64,000 bases of DNA from Candidatus Thermosaccharophagus tengchongensis (GTDB lineage: Bacteria; Armatimonadota; Fervidibacteria; Fervidibacterales; Thermosaccharophagaceae): the NCBI GenBank assembly GCA_032161105.1, contig JAVHTD010000008.1, one strand, 5' to 3'. Shown here one piece after another: positions 2,256 through 26,392 of this stretch. The stretch's first letter is position 1. Each line of letters begins with the position of its first letter. The notes beneath the pieces were generated by a model. That model saw only the letters and a program-made list of their open reading frames with translations. It made no database searches and had not been told where the DNA came from. Position numbers and translations under genes: made by a program.

Positions 2256-5200
2256 TCACCTGACCAACTTGAGGATGAGCACATCATCCGGCGGGAGCTT
2301 ATGGCGCACCGTTATTGTGTTCCCATGCCAGCTGATGGGCATCGCGATTTCCCGTTGCTCATCCAAGCTCAGCACCATCACTTTTGTTCGCTCATTCAAG
2401 CGCAGCGCAGCGGCATCTATTGTGAGCGTGAATTCCTGTGGCGCATCGCTATCGTTGAGGACGGTGAGAAAGATTTCCCCTGAGGCTCCATAGCGTTCAA
2501 CATACACTTTCTCGTTATCCGTCCATGCATGCGTTATCGGCTCCCAGCCGGCTTTGGCGAGCGTTTGTATCAACGGGATGTAGCGCTTGAACAAATCCCT
2601 GTCTCGCTCATACCATTTCTTTGGCGATGCCCAATATGGGTCTTTTGATGCAGCCTCCTCATCAAACATGCTCGGGAAGATGGCATAGAATGCGCATCGC
2701 TTCATGTATCGTTCAACGAATTCGCGCTTGAATCGTTCGTAGTTTGTGTTCATGAGCAGGCAATATGGCTTTCGGTATGACAGCGCACGCCAATAGCTCA
2801 TCATCTCATCGCGTGTTGGCTCATACTTATCGCCGCGCATCCAGTTCACCTCAACTCCCATCACATCAAGCAAGTGTGCCGGGAAGGGAAAGCGCTGCAA
2901 GACAGCATTGGCAAACATCAATTTGTTCCGCCCGTGCATCTTTTCAGCGAGCCATCTTGCAAACTCATAAACGGAAAAGAACAGCATCTGGCAGGGTGTG
3001 CCGTGCGCATCAAAGACGAGTGGCAGTTTGGCATAGCGCCAATGCTCACGCCTGTAATTCAAAGTGGTTGCACCCATTTCAAGCGAGTCAAGATAGACGC
3101 CGTCAAGCTCCCCCTTCGCCAATTCCTCAAAGCTTTCGTTGACAAGGAGGTTCTCCCCACCGACCTCGCCAAAGAAGGCGTCGTCAAACCAAACGGTGCC
3201 AGAATGTGTTCTCCTGAAAAGCAGGTGCAATGTGGCTCTTTCCACCGGGCGCTTCGGTTGGAAGAGCCTTTCCGCCTTCTTCCAATCATGCGTGCCAGTC
3301 TCAAACTCAGCCGTTAAGCCCCAATGGGGAGTTCCGTCATCGTAAATCAAGTCAACATAGACCGCGTAGTTTGAGCTCGGCTTCCCCGTGACAGCCTCTG
3401 CTTTGCTCCAAGCGTTGAACAGCAGCGGTCTTGGTTCCTTTTGATTGAGCACAACGGTTTGCGAGATGCCGAGCTCCATCCCGAGCTTCTCGGCGCTGCA
3501 CCTTATTGAATGCTTTCCGGTGCGAGCCACCCTATCATCAAGCGAAAAGCCAGCGCCATATGCTACCCATCCTTTAACCAATCCCCTCCTTGAGCGTTCA
3601 AACGCGCCCTCAATTGTTTGCATCATGATGCTTGCCTTCGTTTCCTTCCCGTTTGGCGTTCCGATGTCCGGGTCTGGATTGAGCAATATGAGTGCGCCAT
3701 CGCACCACGGCGCCTTAGTTATGGAGAGGACAATTTGTCCGTTGCGCCCATGAACTCCGCTTGTGAAGGTGGCTATAGCCATCCGGCGGCGAAGTTCACC
3801 CCTTGCACCTTCGGCATCCATCCTCAGGGTTTCAATCACAGCTTCGTAAGTTCGCGGCGTCTCCTTTGGCAACGGCAGCCAGTGGCTCATTGGCTCAACA
3901 TAAACGAAGCTGTATATGCCATGCTGTTCATCAAACGGGACATTGTTGTCACCTTCGTGGAAGGCAAACCCAAAGTCCTCAAAGTTGCGCACAGTCGCGA
4001 TGTCGGTGAAAGGCATCCAAATACCCTCTCGCTCCACGCGCTTGATGAAAGCCTCGGGGAAGAGGTCGTAAAATTTTTGAAGAGCTGAGCGCATGCGCCA
4101 TCTCGGCTCAAATCGGTAAATGACAAAGCTGAAGCTCGCCCGCGATGGGAAGTTGATTGTTTCCCGTGAGAGCCCCAAGTCGAAGGCGCAATACAGTTCA
4201 CGGCTCGCTGCATTGTAGGCTATGCGAAACAGCCTTGGGACATCCAATGGTATGGCTAAACAAAGTCCGTCTGTGTCGCTGCTGATAGCCCCAATCGGAT
4301 ACCAAGACATCTTTCCATTCGCGCCGGCACCGACATTGATGGAATTGATGTATTCTCGTTCACCATCAATGCGCTCATTGCGTCTGATGTCATTTGACCA
4401 GAACCAACCGATTGCGTTAACCGGCAGAGCGAAGTAAACCGTTACTGCCCTATCAGTTCCGCTCAAGTCCTCAATTTCTCCGTCCACTCGCACGCATTGC
4501 TTCACGGCTTTAAAATCAGCCCGCAGGCGAAGCTTCAACTCATCATCGGTTGCGCTCAGTTGAGCGCCATAACTTGTTAACTTGACCTTCCCAAGCGGTT
4601 GACGGAAGTGCGAAGCGGCTGCCACATCACGGATATAGAATCCGCCAATGCCATGGTCAGTTATGACCTGTCCCGTATTCGCATCTATGCTTATTGCCAT
4701 TCCGTCATCGGTGCGCAGCGTGATCAACTTCGGTTTCCCAACTGGCTTGTAAGCACCTGTGGTGACTGGCACGCCGTCAAACCTGTATGCGCCCTTGGGC
4801 AGGGCGAGCTCAACCAGCTTAATGTCATCAAACCAGACCGTTCCAGTGTGCCCACGAAATAGCGCATAAACATTAACCCTACCGATTGGCTTGTCTGGGA
4901 GCACAATAACACGGCGCACTTGCCAGTCATGTGAGCCGCAATCAAAGGGAGAGTTTTGTCCCCACAGCGGTGTGCCATCGGTGTAGATTATGTCCAAGTA
5001 AAGCGAGTATCCGCTTGATGGCGTCCCACTTACACCCTTTGCCATGCTCCAACACTCAGCGATGATCGGCGTCGGCTCGCGTTGGTTCAACTCAATGGAC
5101 TGGAAGATGCCCAATTCATCCCTCGGATCGCTGCTTTCGCACCTTGCAGAACGCTTTCCCGTGCGAGCAACCCTCTCGTCAACCTCATATCCGCGTTTCC

Positions 5201-5375
5201 ACGCCTGCCAAAACGAGTGTTGCTTCGCATCACCGATCTCAAAGCTCTCGTTCTTGAGCAGGTTGGGCAAACCCGCAATGTCGGCAGTTATTGAGCGCTT
5301 GACGACAATGGATTGGGAGTAGGCACTGCATGGCATCGTCACAAGTGCCATTAGAGCGAAGATGTTGCGCCGCAT
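2256..5375 (-). CDS. Large secreted putative glycoside hydrolase with two CBM4/9-like modules
   Basis: Signal peptide from ATG 5375 (GGAGGTGA RBS). Two homologous jelly-roll modules ending in TVWFDD, and a DGVYLDS barrel-like motif. Confidence 0.65.
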   Translation of the reverse strand: MRRNIFALMALVTMPCSAYSQSIVVKRSITADIAGLPNLLKNESFEIGDAKQHSFWQAWKRGYEVDERVARTGKRSARCESSDPRDELGIFQSIELNQREPTPIIAECWSMAKGVSGTPSSGYSLYLDIIYTDGTPLWGQNSPFDCGSHDWQVRRVIVLPDKPIGRVNVYALFRGHTGTVWFDDIKLVELALPKGAYRFDGVPVTTGAYKPVGKPKLITLRTDDGMAISIDANTGQVITDHGIGGFYIRDVAAASHFRQPLGKVKLTSYGAQLSATDDELKLRLRADFKAVKQCVRVDGEIEDLSGTDRAVTVYFALPVNAIGWFWSNDIRRNERIDGEREYINSINVGAGANGKMSWYPIGAISSDTDGLCLAIPLDVPRLFRIAYNAASRELYCAFDLGLSRETINFPSRASFSFVIYRFEPRWRMRSALQKFYDLFPEAFIKRVEREGIWMPFTDIATVRNFEDFGFAFHEGDNNVPFDEQHGIYSFVYVEPMSHWLPLPKETPRTYEAVIETLRMDAEGARGELRRRMAIATFTSGVHGRNGQIVLSITKAPWCDGALILLNPDPDIGTPNGKETKASIMMQTIEGAFERSRRGLVKGWVAYGAGFSLDDRVARTGKHSIRCSAEKLGMELGISQTVVLNQKEPRPLLFNAWSKAEAVTGKPSSNYAVYVDLIYDDGTPHWGLTAEFETGTHDWKKAERLFQPKRPVERATLHLLFRRTHSGTVWFDDAFFGEVGGENLLVNESFEELAKGELDGVYLDSLEMGATTLNYRREHWRYAKLPLVFDAHGTPCQMLFFSVYEFARWLAEKMHGRNKLMFANAVLQRFPFPAHLLDVMGVEVNWMRGDKYEPTRDEMMSYWRALSYRKPYCLLMNTNYERFKREFVERYMKRCAFYAIFPSMFDEEAASKDPYWASPKKWYERDRDLFKRYIPLIQTLAKAGWEPITHAWTDNEKVYVERYGASGEIFLTVLNDSDAPQEFTLTIDAAALRLNERTKVMVLSLDEQREIAMPISWHGNTITVRHKLPPDDVLILKLVR

Positions 5376-5439
5376 GATGCTAATCACCTCCATCGCTGTG
5401 AAGCGTCGCATTTATGCACTTGGCGAAGCGCGAGCCGTC

Positions 5440-6027
5440 TCATTGTGGATGTGCTGCCGAGAGCTTGTGAGCAAGTTTTTTTGCCTCCCTCAGCGCATTT
5501 GGGTGATTGAGCACATCGCCCTTTCCCTCAACACCTCGCACGAGCAATTCGCCGGCATACTCAGCGCCGATGGCTTCAAAGAAATACTTGACCGTTAGTC
5601 GGACACCATCAAATAGCCTTCGCCCAGATGTTGCCCCGACGGCTATAAGATAGCCCTTGCGCTTTGGTGCATCATCGGCGACTTTAAGCTTATGCTTCCT
5701 CGCCCAAAGTGCCTGCGCCCTATCAATGGCGCATTTAAGCTGCGCTGGCACATGATAGAAGAAGATCGGCGTTGCAATGACTATGGCATCGGCGCTGTCA
5801 AGCTTTTCGTATATCAACTGCATCTCGTCCTCAATGACGCACCTTCCAGTTGTCTCGCATGAGCCACACTCAATGCATGGCGAGACCTTGAGCTCCCTCA
5901 CATATATGCGCTCAACCGATGCCCCAAGCATTTCCGCCTCGTTGAGCAGCGCATCAAGTAACAAGTCGCTATTTCCGCCCTTTCTCGGGCTCCCGAAGAT
6001 GCCCAACACCTTCACTCGTGCTTGCAC
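5440..6027 (-). CDS. Flavodoxin-fold iron-sulfur flavoprotein / NADPH-dependent FMN reductase
   Basis: GSPRKGGNS, PCIECGSCETTGRC Cys cluster, ATPIFF, KCAIDR. Confidence 0.88.
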   Translation of the reverse strand: MQARVKVLGIFGSPRKGGNSDLLLDALLNEAEMLGASVERIYVRELKVSPCIECGSCETTGRCVIEDEMQLIYEKLDSADAIVIATPIFFYHVPAQLKCAIDRAQALWARKHKLKVADDAPKRKGYLIAVGATSGRRLFDGVRLTVKYFFEAIGAEYAGELLVRGVEGKGDVLNHPNALREAKKLAHKLSAAHPQ

Positions 6028-19449: not shown

Positions 19450-20133
19450 GTGGTGCTAACTGCGCAAAGCGTGAAGGCATATGGGGTGAGCAAGAGCAAA
19501 GAGCGATATAAGTCGGTGCGCATGTTCATCTATCGCATCCTGATACCGCTTCTGCGCATTGCTGCGAAAGTTCTGTTTGGGTTAAGGGTTTATAATGCCA
19601 ACTTGGTGCCGAGGATTGGCGGGATCATAATTGCATCCAATCACCCAACATATCTTGATCCGCTGTTCATAGGTTGCGCTTGTCCGAGGAGGGTTTCATT
19701 TGTAGCGAAGCGCCCCATCTTCAACATGCCATTACTCAGGACGCTCCTATGGCTTGACGATTGCATTCCCGTCTCAAGGGGCGCAGGTGATATTGGTGCA
19801 TTGCGTGAGTGCATCAAGAGGTTAAAATCTGGCGAGGTCATCGCCATCTTTCCGGAGGGCACAAGGAGCGATCATGGCAGAATGCGCCAGTTCACGCACG
19901 GCGCTGCGCTGCTTGCTCAACTTAGCGGATGCCCGATTGTGCCGTGCGCCATCATTAATGCCTATCCTGCGTGGCGTTTGAATGCGCCGTTGCCAAGACC
20001 GCATTGGCGTGTTGAGGTGCGCTTCGGTGAGCCAATTACGGTTGAGCAATGTGACCCGGAATTGAGGGAGATCATCATCCAAAGGGCGACTGATGAATTG
20101 ATGGCTCGGATGAGGCAGCTCGGGGTTCATTGA
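19450..20133 (+). CDS. plsC: 1-acyl-sn-glycerol-3-phosphate acyltransferase
   Basis: NHPTYLD (HX4D), FPEGTRS, PIVP. Confidence 0.88.
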   Translation: MVLTAQSVKAYGVSKSKERYKSVRMFIYRILIPLLRIAAKVLFGLRVYNANLVPRIGGIIIASNHPTYLDPLFIGCACPRRVSFVAKRPIFNMPLLRTLLWLDDCIPVSRGAGDIGALRECIKRLKSGEVIAIFPEGTRSDHGRMRQFTHGAALLAQLSGCPIVPCAIINAYPAWRLNAPLPRPHWRVEVRFGEPITVEQCDPELREIIIQRATDELMARMRQLGVH

Positions 20134-20195: not shown

Positions 20196-23100
20196 TTGGC
20201 GATGGGAAGTCAGTGTGATAAACATGAGGGTCAAAACGGCATTGAGAGTGTTGGGGTAAGGCATATAGCCTTTACGGCTGTCGTCGGGATAGCTCTCCTG
20301 CTGCGCTGGCTCAACATCGTTCAGAGCCTCTTCGGGATTGACTTTGCCGCAATCATAGCAGCTATCGGCGGCTACAAATTCTTCTACGAGACCATTTATG
20401 AGCTCCTGTTTGAAAGGCGGATTGCAACAGATGCCGCTGTGGCGGTGGCATCAGCGGCGGCACTTTATGTCGGGGAATACTTCGCCGCCGCTGAGGTCAT
20501 ACTCATCATGCTCATCGGTGAGGCGCTTGAACATTATGCCGTTGGTCAGACGAGAGCCGCATTGAAAGAGCTCGCAAGGGCAGTCCCATCAATCGCTCAT
20601 TTGGTCAGGGATGGCGAAGTTGTTGATGTCCCGGTCAGTGACATCAAAGTGGGTGATGTTGTGCTTGTGAAGCCGGCTGAGCGCATCCCGATTGATGGAG
20701 TTGTGGTTGATGGCTCCTCAAGTGTTGACGAGAGCACGATAACCGGGGAACCGCTGCCGTCGGACAAATCCGCCGGAGACAAAGTTTACGCGGGGACAGT
20801 CAATCAGGCAGGCATACTCTATGTTCGCGCTGAGGCAGTCGGCGGAGAGACAATCGTTGCGAGGATAATGCGCATGGTTGAGGAAGCGCGTGAGCGCAAA
20901 GCTGAAATTGAACGAGTCGCCGATAAGTATGCGCGCTGGTTCTTGCCAGCCGTTATGTTGGCAGCTGCGATCACATTTTTGTTGAGTAGGGATTTGATGC
21001 GCTCTGTGGCTGTGCTCATCATTGCGTGCCCGTGTGCCCTTGTCCTCTCAACTCCGACGGCTATCATTTCAGCCGTTGGCAGGCTCGCAAGGGAGGGCGT
21101 CCTTGTAAAGAGCGGAACTGCGGTTGAGGGGCTTGGGAAAATCAACTGTGTCGTCTTTGACAAGACTGGCACGCTAACAGTTGGATCACCGATGTTGACC
21201 GACATCATCGCGGCTGGCGAGTTTGACAATCGCATGGTGTTGTCCTTAGCAGCATCAGTTGAGGCTGTAAGTGAGCATACGCTCGGACGCTTGATAGTTG
21301 AATCGGCGAAAGATAGGGGAGCAGTTGTTTCCCAACCGATGGATGTGCGAGTTTATCCCGGAATGGGCATTGCTGGAGTTGTGTCCGGAAAAGCTGTATC
21401 TGTCGGCAACCGGAAGCTGCTGTCGGCGTTGAATATAACCGTGTCAGACAAGTTCAACGAGGAATGGCATCGCTTAGAATCCGCCGGAAAGACAGTTGTA
21501 GCTGTGGCTGTCAATGGCGCTGTTATTGGATTGCTCGCCTTTTCCGACGAGTTGCGCCAACAAGCGCCAAGCGCAATTGAGATGTTGCGAGCGCTCGGAA
21601 TGGCGAAAGTTAGCATGCTCACCGGCGATGCGAATGCCGCTGCAAACGCCGTTGCCGCTAAACTCGGCATAACGGATGTCCACTCGGAATTGCTCCCGCA
21701 CGAAAAGGTTGAGCGCATACAGCGATTGCAATCTCAAGGGCTATATGTGGCGATGGTCGGTGATGGTATAAACGATGCACCGGCACTCGCCGCAGCGCAT
21801 GTTGGCATCGCCATGGGCGGCATCGGGACGGATTTAACCGCGGAAGCCGGTGATGTGGTCATCCTGACGGACGACCTGACCAAAGTGCCGCTCGCAATTG
21901 ATGTCGGAAGAGCAGCGCTGAAAAAGATCCATCAAAACATAGCAGCATTCGCCATCGGCGTTAATTCGGCTTCCGTCCTGCTCGCCGGCTTTGGGTATAT
22001 ACCGCCAGTTTGGGCTGCCGTAGTTCATCAGGTAAGTTCGCTCGCGGTCGTTTGTAACTCGCTTATGCTCCTTTCAAGGCGCCGCGCTGAGCTGTTACCT
22101 CGGCTTAACAGGATGGCGCTGCGATTTAAAGCAGCTGCAGGTGCACTGCGATGGGAAAGCATAAGCGCATTCGTTGTGCGGCACAGCAGTGTGATAGTGC
22201 GCTGCAGTGTGCTGGCGTTATTGGTCTGTTATTTGCTCTCAGGGTTGTTCGTTGTCCGGGCAAATGAGCGGGCTGTTGTATTTCGCTTTGGCAAGCTTTC
22301 AAGGGAACTCGCTCCCGGATTGCACTATCGTCTTCCGTCGCCATTTGAAAGTGTGGTTAAGGTTGATGCCCTCAGCAGGCGCAGGCTTGAGATTGGCTTC
22401 AGGAGCAGACCGAATCCGTTGAGCAACGAGCCGGTCGTTTATGAGTGGGCGTTCAAGCATAAGGTGGTCGGTTATGAGCGCCGCCCGGAAGAGGGGTTGG
22501 TCATCACAGGCGATGAGAACATCATTGAAGTGAATGTGATCGTGCATTACAGCATCAGTGATGTTACAGCGCTTCTGTTGCGCTCTGTGTCGCCTGAGAC
22601 AATACTGCTGCCGCTGTCTGAATCAATCCTCCGCAGCGTTCTTTCACGCTGCGGGATGTATGCGCCATTAGTTGAGAGTAGAGAGCAAGTTGAGGAAAAG
22701 TTGCTGCGCGGTTTGAGAAGGGCGCTGATGCGCTACGGGATGGGCATAGCTGTGCACAGCGTCAAGTTGCAAGATGTTCATCCACCGCTTGAGGCAGATG
22801 TCGTGGATGCGTTCCACGAGGTGGCAAGGGCGCTTGAAGCAAAAGCACAGCTCATCAATGAAGCCGAGGCTTACAAGGCTGAGAAGCTGCCCGAAGCGCG
22901 TGGCGAAGCTGCATCACAAATGTCATCGGCATTGGCGTTCAGCGTTGATAGGGTGAAAAGAGCCGAGGGAGAAGCCTCGCGGTTTGTGAATGTGGCTTCG
23001 CAGTATAGCAGGGCGAGGGAGATACATCGGATACGCCTATATTGGGAGGAGCTTGAGGCAGTGCTGCCAAACTTGAGGAAGTATATCGTGACAACGGATA

Positions 23101-23255
23101 AAGTTGGTTCGCAGCGCATAATTTTTCTCCCACCAAGCCCTGACATGGCTGTGGGAGGAAAATCGCAGCCGGTGAAGGAGGAGGCATTAGTCATCCCTAT
23201 GTTGGAAGAGTTGGAACATGCGCCACCACAGGGCAAGCAAGGCGCAGTGAGGTGA
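20196..23255 (+). CDS. P1B-type heavy-metal ATPase fused to a C-terminal HflK (SPFH/band 7) domain
   Basis: ITGE, CPC, DKTGT, MLTGD, GDGINDAPAL; then a TM helix and ERAVVFRFGK-PGLHY-ITGDENII-LQDVHPP-AEGEASRF-RLYWE, all in one uninterrupted 1019-aa frame. Confidence 0.92.
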   Translation: MAMGSQCDKHEGQNGIESVGVRHIAFTAVVGIALLLRWLNIVQSLFGIDFAAIIAAIGGYKFFYETIYELLFERRIATDAAVAVASAAALYVGEYFAAAEVILIMLIGEALEHYAVGQTRAALKELARAVPSIAHLVRDGEVVDVPVSDIKVGDVVLVKPAERIPIDGVVVDGSSSVDESTITGEPLPSDKSAGDKVYAGTVNQAGILYVRAEAVGGETIVARIMRMVEEARERKAEIERVADKYARWFLPAVMLAAAITFLLSRDLMRSVAVLIIACPCALVLSTPTAIISAVGRLAREGVLVKSGTAVEGLGKINCVVFDKTGTLTVGSPMLTDIIAAGEFDNRMVLSLAASVEAVSEHTLGRLIVESAKDRGAVVSQPMDVRVYPGMGIAGVVSGKAVSVGNRKLLSALNITVSDKFNEEWHRLESAGKTVVAVAVNGAVIGLLAFSDELRQQAPSAIEMLRALGMAKVSMLTGDANAAANAVAAKLGITDVHSELLPHEKVERIQRLQSQGLYVAMVGDGINDAPALAAAHVGIAMGGIGTDLTAEAGDVVILTDDLTKVPLAIDVGRAALKKIHQNIAAFAIGVNSASVLLAGFGYIPPVWAAVVHQVSSLAVVCNSLMLLSRRRAELLPRLNRMALRFKAAAGALRWESISAFVVRHSSVIVRCSVLALLVCYLLSGLFVVRANERAVVFRFGKLSRELAPGLHYRLPSPFESVVKVDALSRRRLEIGFRSRPNPLSNEPVVYEWAFKHKVVGYERRPEEGLVITGDENIIEVNVIVHYSISDVTALLLRSVSPETILLPLSESILRSVLSRCGMYAPLVESREQVEEKLLRGLRRALMRYGMGIAVHSVKLQDVHPPLEADVVDAFHEVARALEAKAQLINEAEAYKAEKLPEARGEAASQMSSALAFSVDRVKRAEGEASRFVNVASQYSRAREIHRIRLYWEELEAVLPNLRKYIVTTDKVGSQRIIFLPPSPDMAVGGKSQPVKEEALVIPMLEELEHAPPQGKQGAVR

Positions 23256-23256
23256 G

Positions 23257-24192
23257 TTGGAAGTGATCTTTCGCCAAATCGTTTTTGTGATAGCGCTTGT
23301 GGCTCTTATGGCTTTGCTCAAATCGTTCGTGTTCACGCTTGATGAGCGTGAGGTTGCCATTGTGACGAGGTTTGGTAAGCCGGTGAAGAGGGTCATCTCG
23401 GCTGGATTGCATTTCAAGCTCCCGATTGATTCGGTGGTGCGCTTTGACAGGCGATTGCAGCTGACCGAAATACCGGCTCGCGAGTTGCTCACGCAGGATA
23501 AGAAGAGCTTGGTCGTTGAAACTTTCGTGTGCTGGTATGTGTATGACCCGAAGCGCTTCCTTGAAACGCTTGGGACAATGCAGGCAGTCCCGATAAGGCT
23601 TGAGGATATAGTTGTCTCGGAATTTGCGGCGGCTTTCGGGAAGCGTTCCCTATCGGACATACTCGCACCTGATGGCGGTTCTTCTGAATTGGACAGGATA
23701 GGCGAGGAGGTGTTGAGGAGGTGCCGAGAGCGCATCCGAAATGAGTATGGCATCCCGAATGACCCAAAGAGTGACCCGATAAAGCTCGTTGATGTGCGCG
23801 TGAGGAGGCTCAACTTCCCTGAGCCGACGAAGCAGAGCGTTTATGAGCGCATGAAGGCTGAGAGGCAGCGCCAAGCAAAGCAGTATAGGGCGGAGGGAAG
23901 GGAAGCGGCAATGAAAATTCGCAGCGAGACGGATAGGGAGGCTGCTCGCATACTTGCCGAAGCTTACAAGCGCGCCGAGCAAATCAAAGGTGAAGCCGAG
24001 GCGCAAGCAATGCGCATCTATGCCGATGCATACAAGCGTGACCCGGAGTTTTATCGCTTCCTGCGAACGCTTGAGGCATACAAGAAGGTGCTAAATGACA
24101 AGACCACGGTCATACTGTCGGCTGACTCGGAGTTGATGAAGCTGCTCACACAAGGACAGGAGATTGGGACGAAGGATAAAGGGAAGAGGTGA
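23257..24192 (+). CDS. hflC: Protease modulator HflC (SPFH domain)
   Basis: AIVTRFGKP, GLHFKLP, LTQDKK, VYERMKAERQRQA-YRAEG, DPEFYRFLRTLEAY. TTG start after GAGGTGAG. Confidence 0.93.
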   Translation: MEVIFRQIVFVIALVALMALLKSFVFTLDEREVAIVTRFGKPVKRVISAGLHFKLPIDSVVRFDRRLQLTEIPARELLTQDKKSLVVETFVCWYVYDPKRFLETLGTMQAVPIRLEDIVVSEFAAAFGKRSLSDILAPDGGSSELDRIGEEVLRRCRERIRNEYGIPNDPKSDPIKLVDVRVRRLNFPEPTKQSVYERMKAERQRQAKQYRAEGREAAMKIRSETDREAARILAEAYKRAEQIKGEAEAQAMRIYADAYKRDPEFYRFLRTLEAYKKVLNDKTTVILSADSELMKLLTQGQEIGTKDKGKR

Positions 24193-24199
24193 GCAAGGA

Positions 24200-24961
24200 T
24201 TGAGGCGAAGGGAGTTTTTGATGCTTCCACTCGGCGTGGTGATGTGTGAATTCCTGAAAGGTTGCGGCGGCTCATCAAATGGGTTGCAAAGTGAGCAGCC
24301 GAACATCGCGCAGCCCGACATCATCCTGACCGGTAATGAGAGCGAGCTGGCTGAGCAGGTGCGTCTCGGTTATGCCAAGCTTCACGAGATGGCTGAAGGC
24401 GCAAGGGAATACCTTCGCATCGGCTTTTACGGTAGTAGGCGAGAGGTCTTGAGGATGCACCTTTGTGAGCCAAAAGGGGGCGTTGCAAATTACAAGCATG
24501 TTCGCCTCGTGAGGGAGTCAACTGGGGAGGCTGTTAGGCTTGTTTGGGGCTGGGATAAGCTCAAGCCGCAGATACGATTCGTTAATGATGACGGCGAGTT
24601 GCTCACGATCAATGGCGTGGAGATGGAGTTCTGGGTAACGGATGCCAAAGGGAGGTTGCCAACAAACAGCATTGATTGGCTTTCGCTCGGCGCAAAGTGG
24701 TTGGCAGTTGGATTTGCAATATGGCTTGGGGCGCAGGTGGCAAAGCTTGTGGTGTCGGCGATTGCCTTCCTTGCATTTAGCGCAATGGTTGTTGGTGCTT
24801 TAATGATGGCAGCCGGCATTGCGAAGTCAATACTGGAGCTGACCGGTTGGACTTTTGATGATGTCAAAAACTTCTTGGTGAGGGCAGTTGAGGAACTTGC
24901 CAATGCGCTGCTTGAGGGAGCTAAGTTCATAGAGCAAGTGCTTCCCGGATTGGCTGCATAG
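24200..24961 (+). CDS. Hypothetical Tat-type lipoprotein with a C-terminal hydrophobic hairpin
   Basis: TTG start after GAGGTGAG gives LRRREFL...LKGC (twin-arginine plus lipobox); long hydrophobic C-terminus. Confidence 0.65.
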   Translation: MRRREFLMLPLGVVMCEFLKGCGGSSNGLQSEQPNIAQPDIILTGNESELAEQVRLGYAKLHEMAEGAREYLRIGFYGSRREVLRMHLCEPKGGVANYKHVRLVRESTGEAVRLVWGWDKLKPQIRFVNDDGELLTINGVEMEFWVTDAKGRLPTNSIDWLSLGAKWLAVGFAIWLGAQVAKLVVSAIAFLAFSAMVVGALMMAAGIAKSILELTGWTFDDVKNFLVRAVEELANALLEGAKFIEQVLPGLAA

Positions 24962-25003: not shown

Positions 25004-26392
25004 TTGCTCATGAGGAGGGCAAGCAGGACAGCCTGTGGCGGTGCCGTGTTAGTCCTTGTGTTAGCCATCATTGCGTTTGTCCATTTGTGCTCTTGCAAGC
25101 GCGCTGAGCGAAGAACAGCCGGAGAGAGTTTGACGCTCATAATCATCTCGCCACATTGGGATGGCATACAGCGTGAATTCACATGGGCTTTCCAAGAGCA
25201 TTACAAGCGGCGCTTTAAGAAGCATGTTGAAATACGCTTCCCAGATGTTGGTGGGACTTCACAATGCCTCCGATACATACGCACCAGCTTTAAGGAGAGT
25301 CCAAATGGCATCGGCGCCGACATGTTTTGGGGCGGTGGAATTGACCCATATGTTGAACTCAAGCGTGAGGGCTTGCTTGTGCCATACAAGCCGCCGGACG
25401 AAATTTTAAATCACATACCGAAACAGGTGGCGGGCATACCGCTCTATGACGAGGATTATTGCTGGTTTGGGACTGCGCTCTCCGGGTTTGGAATATTGTT
25501 CAACAAAGTTGTGTTGCGCGAGCACAACCTCCCGGAGCCAAAAGAGTGGGTTGACTTAGCTGACCCGAAGTTTTACGGTTGGGTTGAGCTTACGGACCCG
25601 AGGCAGAGCGGCGTTGCGCACATGATGTTTGAGATAATCCTACAGGCTTATGGTTGGGAGAAGGGGTTTGAGGTCATAGCTATGATGTCCGGCAATGCAA
25701 GGGCATACAATCGCGGTTCGCAGGAGCCGGTTGAAAGCGTGGCGAATGGACAGGCTGCCTGTGCGCCAACGATTGATTTCTATGCATGGTCAAAGATAAA
25801 CGAGGCCGGCAGTGACATGCTCGGCTTCGTTTACCCGAAGAACATGACGGTGATCAACCCCGATGGCATTTCAATCCTCAAGGGATCGCCACATAAGGAG
25901 GTCGCGCAGGAGTTCATCAACTTCGTCCTTTCAAAGGAGGGGCAAAGGCTCTGGATGCTCCCGAAGGGAGCAAGGGGCGGACCAAAGGAATTCACACTCG
26001 CAAGGATGAGCATACTTCCGGAGTTGTATGATGAGCTGAAGGGAAGAAGCGTTTTGGATGTCAACCCGTTCGAGTGGAAGACTACCATGCACTACGATGC
26101 TAAGCTCGGCGCTGACAGGTGGGAACTGCTCAACAGCCTCATTGGTGCACTATTCGTTGATGCGCATGAGCAAGTGCGTAAGGCATTCTCGGCGTTGATT
26201 GAAGCCGGCATGCCAAATAAGCTGCTCAGAGAGTTTGCGCGAGTGCCATTGGATGAGACACAAATGATGAAACTCGCCCAAAGATGGGTTAGGGATAAGT
26301 TGCTCTCAAGCAAGTATGAGGCTGAGTGGGCTTCTCAAGCGCAAGCAAAATACAAGCGCATAATTGAGCTTGCACGAAAGATGAGAAAGTAG
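25004..26392 (+). CDS. ABC transporter substrate-binding lipoprotein (Fe3+/AfuA-like family)
   Basis: IISPH, ADMFWGGG, PKEWVDLADP, DPRQSG, INPDGISILKG, FVLSKEGQ. Confidence 0.82.
   Translation: MLMRRASRTACGGAVLVLVLAIIAFVHLCSCKRAERRTAGESLTLIIISPHWDGIQREFTWAFQEHYKRRFKKHVEIRFPDVGGTSQCLRYIRTSFKESPNGIGADMFWGGGIDPYVELKREGLLVPYKPPDEILNHIPKQVAGIPLYDEDYCWFGTALSGFGILFNKVVLREHNLPEPKEWVDLADPKFYGWVELTDPRQSGVAHMMFEIILQAYGWEKGFEVIAMMSGNARAYNRGSQEPVESVANGQAACAPTIDFYAWSKINEAGSDMLGFVYPKNMTVINPDGISILKGSPHKEVAQEFINFVLSKEGQRLWMLPKGARGGPKEFTLARMSILPELYDELKGRSVLDVNPFEWKTTMHYDAKLGADRWELLNSLIGALFVDAHEQVRKAFSALIEAGMPNKLLREFARVPLDETQMMKLAQRWVRDKLLSSKYEAEWASQAQAKYKRIIELARKMRK

Follow-up and report, generated by a model that had tools for sequence, protein, structure and literature searches.

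A P1B metal ATPase fused to HflK and paired with hflC: a recurring cassette and a candidate cage-linked metal pump

What is a metal pump doing on the end of an HflK protein? The question is raised by a 64,000-nucleotide stretch of DNA from Candidatus Thermosaccharophagus tengchongensis (assembly GCA_032161105.1, contig JAVHTD010000008.1; hereafter the window), in which a P1B metal ATPase and HflK share one reading frame immediately ahead of hflC. A sequence-only reading of the window proposed that the fusion would tether metal pumps to an SPFH cage, giving either a metal-handling membrane microcompartment or control of the pump through FtsH.

The single frame of 1019 residues, running from a P1B ATPase through a transmembrane (TM) helix into a full HflK, is borne out by the open reading frame and by Pfam and NCBIfam (Table 1). 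Translation may begin at TTG 20196 or at ATG 20202. Pfam places E1-E2_ATPase at residues 130-299, Hydrolase at 316-535 and Band_7 at 686-893. Both halves score above curated NCBIfam cut-offs: 577.9 bits against 346.25 for the P1B ATPase model TIGR01525 (residues 80-625), and 196.7 bits against 159.4 for the HflK model TIGR01933 (residues 685-971; 199.9 in the genome search). The junction, which the sequence-only reading had marked for checking, also holds. Contigs from 4 hot-spring metagenome runs (4 studies) carry only substitutions over 21700-22700, with no indels, and one 12-kb contig from another study crosses the whole junction with 0 gaps. Homologues are encoded as one frame in 20 of the 20 Armatimonadota relatives fetched, at identities down to ~40%, and the first protein search returned 28 fused P1B proteins.

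The trivial explanation would be either that an error of sequencing or assembly merged two genes or that the frame is a pseudogene in decay. It is rejected with near certainty: no supporting point was found, and an artefact is ruled out by the gap-free contigs, the single frame in the relatives, the conserved catalytic residues and the 28 fused proteins. To judge from its sequence, the ATPase–HflK fusion is genuine and anciently conserved, with an ATPase that appears from its motifs to be catalytically intact.

Table 1. Features of the fusion locus (positions in the window).
Feature	Position	Strand	Basis or remark
PlsC-like acyltransferase, adjoining the fusion upstream	19450..20133	+	Pfam Acyltransferase, 3.8e-31
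P1B metal ATPase–HflK fusion gene, 1019 aa	20196..23255	+	open frame; Pfam and NCBIfam domains
ATPase moiety, residues 1-628	20196..22079	+	8 predicted TM helices, A/P/N domains, without HMA
Cytoplasmic linker, residues 629-663 (35 residues)	22080..22184	+	variable length, poorly conserved among fusions
HflK-type TM helix, residues 664-681	22185..22238	+	hydropathy; AF2 helix; E. coli HflK alignment
HflK SPFH domain and remainder	22239..23255	+	TIGR01933; 7vhp_E; AF2
hflC, 311 aa	23257..24192	+	TIGR01932, 206.6 bits against cut-off 134.4
Genus-specific gene	24164..24961	+	same gene after hflC in 3 same-genus loci
Solute-binding protein, SBP_bac_6/8/1/11	25004..26392	+	Pfam; position kept in 3 same-genus loci

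The ATPase half carries TGE at residue 183, CPC at 278-280, DKTGT at 322 and GDGIND at 522. The key residues of these motifs are invariant across 53 aligned fusions, with the proline of CPC kept in at least 90%. Its description as a complete P1B ATPase stands for the catalytic core and the predicted 8 TM helices, but not for the N-terminal HMA metal-binding domain, for which the fusion has no Pfam match (PF00403). An HMA domain is common but not obligatory in P1B ATPases. Ahead of the first TM helix lies a short tail of ~17 residues (by hydropathy) that bears Cys and His. Hydropathy finds 7 TM-like segments before the HflK helix, missing M1, and adds a likely false segment at 431-449 in the soluble domain; the helices of the AF2 model are compatible with 8 TM helices in this half. 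Both ends of the ATPase half would lie in the cytoplasm, as in its family.

The TM signature of the ATPase consists of CPC in TM4, VN in TM5 and HQVSS in TM6. In Cu(I) pumps of the CopA-like P1B-1 type the ligand set is YN in TM5 and MxxSS in TM6, and in Zn(II)/Cd(II) pumps of the ZntA-like P1B-2 type it is a Lys in TM5 and DxG in TM6. Alignment with CopA shows the Cu(I) set to be absent from the window ATPase: YN is replaced by VN, and the TM6 Met aligned with a copper ligand, according to the CopA numbering that we assume here, is replaced by His. YN and M..SS are shown by HMA-bearing copper-type matches and not by the fusions. Despite lacking this set, the window ATPase reaches 457 against a cut-off of 397 with TIGR01511. 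Comparison by eye with ZntA likewise showed no P1B-2 Lys or DxG in the TM5 and TM6 segments. The score with TIGR01512 is 468.7 (cut-off 313.5), and that with the ZntA exception model is 383.6 (cut-off 1240). As far as motifs can tell, the signature is of neither the Cu(I) nor the Zn(II) type. The combination CPCALV / FAxxxN / H(Q,N,E)xxS is common only to the fused proteins and some HMA-less relatives.

The ATPase core aligns end to end with CopA (3J08, 394.7 bits; 3RFU, 356.8 bits), ZntA (4UMV, 320.3 bits) and 7QBZ, a ‘cadmium translocating P-type ATPase’ (350.5 bits). It shares their four catalytic motifs but, unlike them, has no HMA domain and a C-terminus that runs on into HflK. When the ATPase half is the sole query, 29 of the 30 best matches carry Band_7, and the two halves therefore travel together.

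Between the halves, the linker shows gaps of ~20 residues in an alignment of 27 fusions. Its AF2 pLDDT lies in the mid-50s and 60s, with predicted helices at 630-650 and 653-662. Such variable length and low model confidence would suit a tether. A cluster of strain SNPs occurs at 22190-22227, just 3' of the linker. The HflK-type TM helix would take the chain across the membrane, so that it emerges on the outer face. In the AF2 model (mean pLDDT 83.4), the HflK part comprises the SPFH domain, a coiled-coil helix of 69 residues (871-939), C-terminal strands (961-978) and a disordered tail. E. coli HflK (7vhp_E) matches it at 132 bits, with its TM region aligned from residue 80.

As first read, hflC begins 1 nt past the fusion stop. 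It is the only HflC-type gene above the family cut-off in a whole-genome search, and a separate canonical hflKC pair, for which the sequence-only reading had left room, is thereby not found. The product of the gene after hflC has no Pfam family; it has a lipobox-like N-terminus containing Cys and one strongly hydrophobic C-terminal segment, and its true start is likely a Met at ~24221, as in a relative. The solute-binding protein gene is the last on the plus strand ahead of a convergent RNase PH gene. The upstream acyltransferase keeps its position in 3 same-genus loci only.

The conserved unit is a three-gene cassette comprising a transporter–HflK fusion, HflC and a free HflK paralogue (K2). 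It recurs in Armatimonadota, Planctomycetota, Eisenbacteria, Omnitrophota and Aminicenantes, and on one conjugative alphaproteobacterial plasmid. The fusion is accompanied by hflC in 19 of 20 Armatimonadota loci, in 15 of 15 CDF loci and in 18 of 18 Planctomycetota loci. K2 follows hflC in 15 of the 20 Armatimonadota loci and 13 of the 15 CDF loci (both misses being cut by contig ends), and is found in all 18 Planctomycetota loci. FeoB precedes 4 CDF cassettes. The fused partner is a P1B ATPase, a CDF or an ArsP_1 permease, three unrelated metal transporters. The best 150 HflK-domain representatives include 80 long proteins, which the domain scan covered (the remaining 70, <440 aa, lay outside it). 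It gave 36 P1B, 33 CDF and 3 ArsP_1 partners, making 72 transporter–HflK fusions; 8 had no second domain, and no other partner family appeared in these 80. The partners have an even number of TM helices (P1B 8, CDF 6, ArsP_1 8) followed by one extra helix, an arrangement that would leave the SPFH domain outside the cytoplasm, where HflK has it.

Phylogenetic trees separate HflK from HflC (support 100), and recover K2 (99) and canonical HflK (99) as clades. The cassette HflCs, that of the window among them, group together and apart from canonical HflC (92). The P1B-fused HflKs form a weakly supported group (66), and the CDF-fused HflKs no resolved group. HflK_N was seen only in one canonical HflK (L126), and neither in the fusion nor in K2. 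There are also split forms, in which a K–C–K triad neighbours metal ATPases: loci L159 and L160, the Aquibium conjugative plasmid and P. aeruginosa PA2439-PA2435. Within the window, fusion, hflC and K2 do not stand in one row; the genome does encode all three, with K2 on contig C36, and K2 lies on another contig in all 4 genomes of the genus. A third, more distant SPFH gene (80.8 bits, below the HflK cut-off) sits on contig C7 behind a 431-aa membrane-protein ORF.

That three unrelated metal transporters are found fused to one kind of HflK, within one type of cassette, strengthens the proposal that the pump is tethered to an SPFH cage. We lean towards a dedicated mixed HflK/HflC cage with tethered metal transporters, a metal-homeostasis device in which the transporter is interchangeable. 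Family membership suggests that HflK and HflC co-assemble. The fusion, the adjacent HflC and K2 would build a cage of alternating K-type and C-type subunits, with a transporter on some K positions only, attached by a flexible cytoplasmic tether of ~15-45 residues. The tether would hold the membrane domain of the pump at the ring formed by the TM helices of the cage, the simplest position being within that ring, so that metal would be moved across the membrane patch enclosed by the cage. We infer mixed occupancy by K and K2 and a pump within the ring, and likewise which metal is moved and in which direction. The module would serve metal homeostasis rather than general housekeeping as HflKC.

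The E. coli cage, according to a published account, has 24 alternating subunits enclosing four FtsH hexamers, with 2 TM helices per subunit (PMC12048511). With these dimensions borrowed, four FtsH hexamers amount to 48 helices and twelve 8-TM pumps to 96. The latter would not fit, which would explain the keeping of a pump-free K2. A more elaborate version, which we find quite unlikely, makes the kit a protein-walled nanocompartment on the outer face, a vault of HflC, HflK2 and pump–HflK into or out of whose closed chamber the tethered transporters would move metal; it would be an FtsH-free organelle for metal sequestration or loading, spread horizontally across phyla. A recurring kit with three unrelated metal transporters in many phyla points to an unstudied cage-linked metal-transport device.

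The cage might instead hold FtsH, with the fused pump beside the protease. Regulated proteolysis, perhaps acting through an N-terminal tail that senses metal, would then determine how much pump is present. Both SPFH genes do score above the equivalog cut-offs for HflK and HflC, these genomes have no HflK/C set other than the cassette, and the known substrates of FtsH include a P-type ATPase, MgtA (PMC13220708). A single ftsH is present in this genome (contig C6, 792 bits), and FtsH was found in every cassette genome searched, including 5 of 5 with CDF cassettes; FtsH is, however, near-universal, and its presence is therefore uninformative. The window contains no ftsH, as the sequence-only reading stated, and none adjoins any cassette inspected; nor was linkage to hflX seen. 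Of 401 genomes sampled across the phylum, 366 yielded no HflK match with this query (E<=1e-20), so that HflK/C looks accessory there. The N-terminal tails are rich in His and Cys in some fusions, but many have 0-2 such residues in the first 30. Control through FtsH also leaves the restriction of the observed partners to metal transporters unexplained, and the cassette parts form lineages separate from the canonical FtsH-associated pair. We regard it, metal-sensitive tail included, as possible but on the unlikely side.

A plainer role, in which the SPFH ring merely clusters or stabilises transporters, outside the ring or in a lipid microdomain, with neither compartment nor protease, seems quite unlikely. 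A flexible, variable tether would permit either side of the ring, SPFH proteins are widely described as microdomain organisers, and CDFs act as dimers (PMC5357649), which neighbouring fused subunits could favour. Such clustering would not explain the strict limitation to metal transporters, nor the retention of K2, because there is no crowding outside the ring. Metal supply in place of detoxification, meaning zinc or copper acquisition or the metal loading of extracytoplasmic proteins under scarcity, we judge unlikely; it is a matter of physiology and could hold alongside the cage model. It draws on the Zur-regulated, zinc-depletion-induced hflK/hflC–hmtA cluster of P. aeruginosa, on genes annotated PCu(A)C, SCO, DsbB and thioredoxin beside the Aquibium cassette, on the solute-binding protein gene downstream in the genus of the window and on the FeoB genes noted above. 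Against it, CDF and P1B families are mostly exporters, as far as family names and a review text go. Since the possibly related P. aeruginosa operon responds to zinc starvation and its ATPase is reported to be an importer, while the Aquibium cassette lies in what resembles a resistance island, the dedicated cage could work in either direction, for detoxification or for supply.

A close structural counterpart is the E. coli HflK/HflC–FtsH assembly (7VHP, 7WI3, 9CZ1). The C-terminal 340 residues of the fusion align with HflK 80-369, and the AF2 model includes the single TM helix, the SPFH domain, the long helix and the C-terminal strands; Arg191 is a published HflK contact residue. E. coli HflK has a short cytoplasmic N-terminal tail where the fusion has an 8-TM metal ATPase. 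Unlike E. coli, the cassette includes a second HflK paralogue, making three SPFH genes, and its K2 and HflC branch separately from the canonical proteins. Stomatin/NfeD-type pairs similarly encode an SPFH protein with a dedicated membrane partner, as may the SPFH gene on contig C7, whose membrane neighbour we take to be NfeD-like. Unlike that of the cassette, their partner is not a transporter.

The sequence-only reading knew of no functional characterisation of this architecture. No description of the fusion was found in the literature searched, but an unfused, Zur-regulated hflK/hflC/hmtA operon is known from P. aeruginosa and offers the nearest lead. There, PA2439-PA2434 (HflK family, HflC, HflC family, hmtA) likewise brings three SPFH genes and a P1B ATPase together at one locus, in an order resembling that of L159 and L160 above; each gene stands by itself with no fusion, and the genes are only possibly related to those of the window. 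Zinc depletion raises PA2437-PA2439 (HflC/HflK family) and hmtA by 5.6- to 14.4-fold (PMC4542158), proteomics agrees (PMC11761036), and the PA2439 promoter is shifted by Zur in EMSA (PMC8531726). HmtA is reported as a Zn and Cu importer in a review text, and the SPFH genes of the cluster figure in the cited work merely as annotations.

A cultured organism, Aquibium oceanicum B7, has the same three-gene layout on its conjugative plasmid (NZ_CP018172.1), where RefSeq lists HflK, HflC and HflK. The fused partner here is a CDF and not a P1B ATPase: the open frame from 4051 encodes 603 aa, and the annotated start, giving 515 aa, trims part of the CDF domain. The cassette adjoins an integrase, a two-component system, an HMA-type P1B ATPase, PCu(A)C and SCO, surroundings that look like a metal-resistance or copper-handling island.

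The fusion is a single open frame of 1019 codons (window 20196..23255, + strand). Its N-terminal 625 residues are a P1B heavy-metal ATPase (TIGR01525, 577.9 bits against a cut-off of 346), residues 685-971 are an HflK (TIGR01933, 196.7 bits; cut-off 159.4), and the adjoining gene encodes an HflC (TIGR01932, 206.6 bits; cut-off 134.4). The sequence-only reading had described a P1B ATPase and an HflK in one 1019-aa frame, with hflC beginning 1 nt after its stop. Pfam and NCBIfam domains agree with the first statement, and the position and score of hflC bear out the second. The ATPase had also been called complete, which holds for the TGE, CPC, DKTGT and GDGIND motifs, all of them present, but not for an HMA domain, which Pfam did not find in the fusion.

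Features of the fusion and of its neighbours in the window
Feature	Position	Strand	Basis or remark
PlsC-like acyltransferase (lipid synthesis)	window 19450-20133	same as fusion	directly upstream of fusion
Fusion N-terminus			short tail, few Cys and His; hydropathy and AlphaFold2
P1B core			eight helices; hydropathy and AlphaFold2
E1-E2_ATPase	fusion residues 130-299		Pfam
Hydrolase	fusion residues 316-535		Pfam
Linker helices	fusion residues 630-662		two, low confidence; AlphaFold2
HflK-side TM helix	fusion residues 664-681		one; hydropathy and AlphaFold2
Band_7/SPFH	fusion residues 686-893		Pfam
SPFH domain	after TM helix 664-681		AlphaFold2
Long helix	fusion residues 871-939		69 residues; AlphaFold2
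Fusion C-terminus			two strands, then disordered end; AlphaFold2
hflC	window, from 23257	+	311 codons; 1 base past fusion stop
Protein of no known family	window 24164-24961		right after hflC; Cys-containing lipobox-like N-terminus, hydrophobic C-terminal segment
Solute-binding protein	window 25004-26392		follows the 24164-24961 gene

It is scarcely conceivable that the fused frame is an assembly error. Contigs from four hot-spring metagenome runs, belonging to four different studies and not including the window's possible source run, cover 21700-22700 with substitutions only and no indels, which refutes that explanation. One 12-kb metagenome contig traverses the whole interval, the junction (22080-22260) included, with 0 gaps. 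GC content and skew over 18-27 kb show no anomaly at the junction. Where the HflK TM helix begins (22190-22227), five strain-level substitutions lie close together, without indels, and at this same spot they interrupt unitigs from three of the hot-spring metagenomes' runs.

The layout of the fusion is the same by hydropathy and in an AlphaFold2 model (mean pLDDT 83.4, pTM 0.63) that draws on 53 fused homologues. P1B ATPases end in the cytoplasm and one extra helix follows, so the SPFH domain would lie on the outer face of the membrane, as in HflK. In sequence, the C-terminal part can be aligned to residues 80-369 of E. coli HflK (7vhp_E, 132 bits). When the HflK-FtsH contact Arg191 is mapped through this alignment, Ala is counted at 191 and Arg at 185 and 193, in a placement that was made by hand count and is ambiguous. 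Linker length differs by ~20 residues among 27 aligned fusions, and conservation there is poor, as would suit a tether rather than a fixed interface. Complex prediction for the fused HflK part, HflC and K2, a free and pump-free HflK paralogue, with HflC as partner, gave runs of 0.93, 0.20 and 0.26, spread about the mark of 0.32.

The ATPase core is closest to CopA (394.7 bits), followed by the 7qbz chain (350.5) and ZntA (320.3). Its ligand helices were compared with those of CopA through a PDB search using a 141-residue piece, an 81-residue TM5-TM6 piece having found no PDB match. The 'YN' of TM5 in CopA is 'VN' in the fusion ATPase, and the TM6 Met that lines up with a Cu ligand is replaced by His ('HQVSS'). 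In a table of 112 relatives, the combination CPCALV / FAxxxN / H(Q,N,E)xxS is found in the fused proteins and some unfused ones that lack HMA, while HMA-bearing copper pumps have CPCALG / YN / MxxSS. These unusual ligand helices therefore do not assign the pump to a particular metal.

The architecture recurs well beyond the window. A search limited to long proteins matched the HflK part to 47 of them: 28 with P1B and Band_7, 17 with Cation_efflux (CDF) and Band_7, one with the permease ArsP_1 and Band_7, and one with Band_7 alone. An exhaustive, profile-free search with the HflK domain gave 7485 matches. Among the best 150 representatives of these, the partner census covers the 80 of at least 440 aa; it comprises 36 P1B, 33 CDF and 3 ArsP_1 fusions and 8 proteins with no second domain, three of the assignments being taken from the long-protein search. 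The source names of the closest proteins are Armatimonadota and Fervidibacterota. When the ATPase half alone was the query, Band_7 was present in 29 of the 30 best matches, and Verrucomicrobiae, Bryobacterales and Gemmataceae were added to the named sources.

Within the window's phylum, 35 of 401 sampled genomes match the HflK query at E<=1e-20. By eye, 24 of these matches lie in frames of at least 1000 aa; 7 are interrupted, by a contig end or an in-frame stop, and the other 4 are unfused or ambiguous. The fusion is one frame in all 20 Armatimonadota regions fetched, so that its homologues are by no means always encoded as separate genes. Downstream, hflC is present in 19 of these regions (~1 kb off in one), being absent from the stretch fetched for locus L047, and K2 comes right after hflC in 15. 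Three genomes of the window's genus have hflC, the protein of no known family and the solute-binding protein as in the window, with K2 on another contig. The same three-gene cassette of fusion, hflC and K2 is also present with other transporters as the fused partner. A locus search with the 14 closer rows out of a 36-row CDF alignment yielded 15 full-length CDF-HflK loci, from Eisenbacteria, Omnitrophota, Planctomycetota, Aminicenantes and unclassified MAGs; hflC is present in 15/15 and K2 in 13/15, the other two stopping at a contig edge. In Planctomycetota, 97 of 401 sampled genomes have an HflK match, and ~26 of them (hand count) have two HflK-like matches ~2 kb apart on the same strand. 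All 18 such regions fetched proved to be fusion-hflC-K2, with 12 ArsP_1, 3 P1B and 1 CDF partner and 2 of no identified family.

Trees of the SPFH region were built with FastTree (260 rows) and IQ-TREE LG+C20 'quick' (69 rows); both exclude four ambiguous loci, and the smaller one also lacks five long-branch rows. HflK-type and HflC-type sequences are split with support of 100, K2 proteins form one clade (99), canonical two-gene HflKs form another (99), and cassette HflCs are separate from the canonical ones (92). P1B-fused HflKs group weakly (66), and CDF-fused HflKs form no resolved group. These separate lineages indicate that the cassette is a system of its own, and not a housekeeping pair with an add-on.

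The source genome (2.74 Mb, 44 contigs, 97% complete) was searched for a separate canonical hflKC-ftsH set, as the sequence-only reading had proposed. There is no such hflKC pair, since the only HflC over the cut-off is the window's own and K2 (323 aa, 218 bits, on 2.8-kb contig C36) has no adjoining hflC. The one FtsH is on contig C6 (792 bits). A third, more distant SPFH gene, on contig C7, falls short of the HflK cut-off with 80.8 bits. There (24-2235), a 431-aa multi-TM ORF precedes a 270-aa SPFH protein in what we take to resemble an NfeD/stomatin-type pair; if so, it would be a second SPFH system of the genome. Upstream of K2 on C36 (3-281) is an ORF fragment ending in a glycine-rich motif that, to our eye, recalls Cas6 C-termini.

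No ftsH was found beside any cassette inspected. The large genes upstream of cassettes, considered as candidates for it, are DUF3604-like, FeoB, gyrase, peptidase M16 and others, and the window is flanked by housekeeping genes. In seven Armatimonadota loci (L049, L052, L053, L058, L059, L062 and L079, the last duplicating the contig of L052), the fusion is preceded by large ORFs on its own strand that match DUF3604 weakly (24-44 bits). In four loci (L064-L067), FeoB, ferrous iron transport protein B, lies immediately before CDF-HflK on the same strand, a possible sign that some cassettes are connected with iron. A fourth, conserved gene follows K2 in ten Armatimonadota loci (L048, L050-L052, L054, L055, L057, L058, L063 and, again duplicating L052's contig, L079; e.g., L052:7635-8108). 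Its product of 157-229 aa has one N-terminal TM helix and a conserved ~120-residue domain with no Pfam match, and could be a further cage component or cargo. Fervidibacter-type loci have a 135-aa ORF between hflC and K2 (L051:2325-2732, L052:6278-6685, L079:8146-8553). The two genes that follow hflC in the window are kept in 3/3 same-genus loci (L044-L046). The PlsC-like acyltransferase is likewise upstream in the window and three same-genus loci, and is absent in other families; a tie to membrane-domain lipids is only a thought.

Two Planctomycetota loci (L159:1-1461, L160:1-1525) have a separate P1B ATPase gene after K2, whose ORFs run off the fetched stretch with the TM6 motif outside view. 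In both, the genes run HflK, HflC, K2, ATPase, and the N-terminal 290 residues of the first HflK belong to no known family. The Aquibium oceanicum B7 conjugative plasmid (NZ_CP018172.1, locus L162) carries CDF-HflK, HflC and HflK, near genes for an integrase, a two-component system, an HMA-type P1B ATPase, PCu(A)C, SCO, DsbB and thioredoxin. Its fusion frame (4051-5862) is open for 603 aa from 4051, with a full Cation_efflux domain at 96-286, and the RefSeq 'HflK' of 515 aa starts at 4315, inside the CDF domain. The integrase gene (3153-3974) is absent from the plasmid gene table.

An intact metal transporter is thus covalently linked to an HflK subunit in a conserved manner and with a fitting topology. 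It is accompanied by a dedicated HflC and a second HflK, and two unrelated metal-transporter families can replace P1B in the same cassette. The E. coli HflK/C complex, as PMC12048511 describes it, has 24 alternating subunits around four FtsH hexamers. The three SPFH proteins may form a ring of this type, with the K positions divided between K2 and the fusion, and the tether would keep the pumps at the ring. This cage with tethered transporters is, as a whole, the reading towards which the evidence leans; that the pumps sit inside the ring is a more doubtful part of it. At two TM helices per subunit, four FtsH hexamers contribute 48 helices, against 96 for twelve 8-TM pumps, so a pump-free K2 would be needed, and K2 is in fact always kept. 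The limitation of the partners to metal transporters would suit a cassette whose purpose is metal flux at an enclosed patch of membrane. A plain scaffold would leave K2 unexplained, and generic scaffolding hardly accounts for metal-transporter-only partners; it seems distinctly unlikely.

The same narrow range of partners is hardly what generic proteolytic control would produce, and this, together with the lack of linkage to ftsH, makes FtsH-coupled turnover of the pump rather improbable, even if membership of the HflK/HflC family, the absence from these genomes of any HflK/C set other than the cassette, and the citing of the P-type ATPase MgtA as an FtsH substrate (in PMC13220708) speak for it. 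A role in supply rather than detoxification is compatible with the cage model, and is an unlikely option. PA2437-PA2439 (HflC/HflK family) of P. aeruginosa share one cluster with hmtA, a P1B ATPase gene, and this cluster is reported as up on zinc depletion (PMC4542158; PMC11761036). Zur shifts the PA2439 promoter (PMC8531726), and HmtA is an importer according to one review (PMC8456098).

Full-text literature searches turned up no description of either the fusion or the cassette, in keeping with the earlier statement that no functional characterisation of the architecture was known. In the P. aeruginosa papers (PMC4542158; PMC11761036; PMC8531726), the SPFH genes appear as annotations and nothing more. 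Annotation can be corrected, as pipelines name such proteins 'HflK' or 'Cu+-exporting ATPase' and sometimes drop the transporter half. For structural work the cassette provides a complex that is both defined and thermostable, and it poses a testable stoichiometry problem, fused versus free HflK. Cultured or well-studied entry points are the Aquibium plasmid and, in Pseudomonas, the hmtA cluster under Zur control. The field has yet to settle what SPFH cages contain, and why. To our knowledge, FtsH is the only established resident of bacterial HflK/C. Recent papers are split on whether the HflK/C cage blocks or promotes proteolysis. The component families are already known; the combination is widespread and identifies a class of cargo for an SPFH cage. 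Since three unrelated transporter families swap as partner, the link is to metal transport itself, and beside the FtsH of known HflK/C cages the covalent fusion names metal transporters as the cargo of one HflK/C subfamily.
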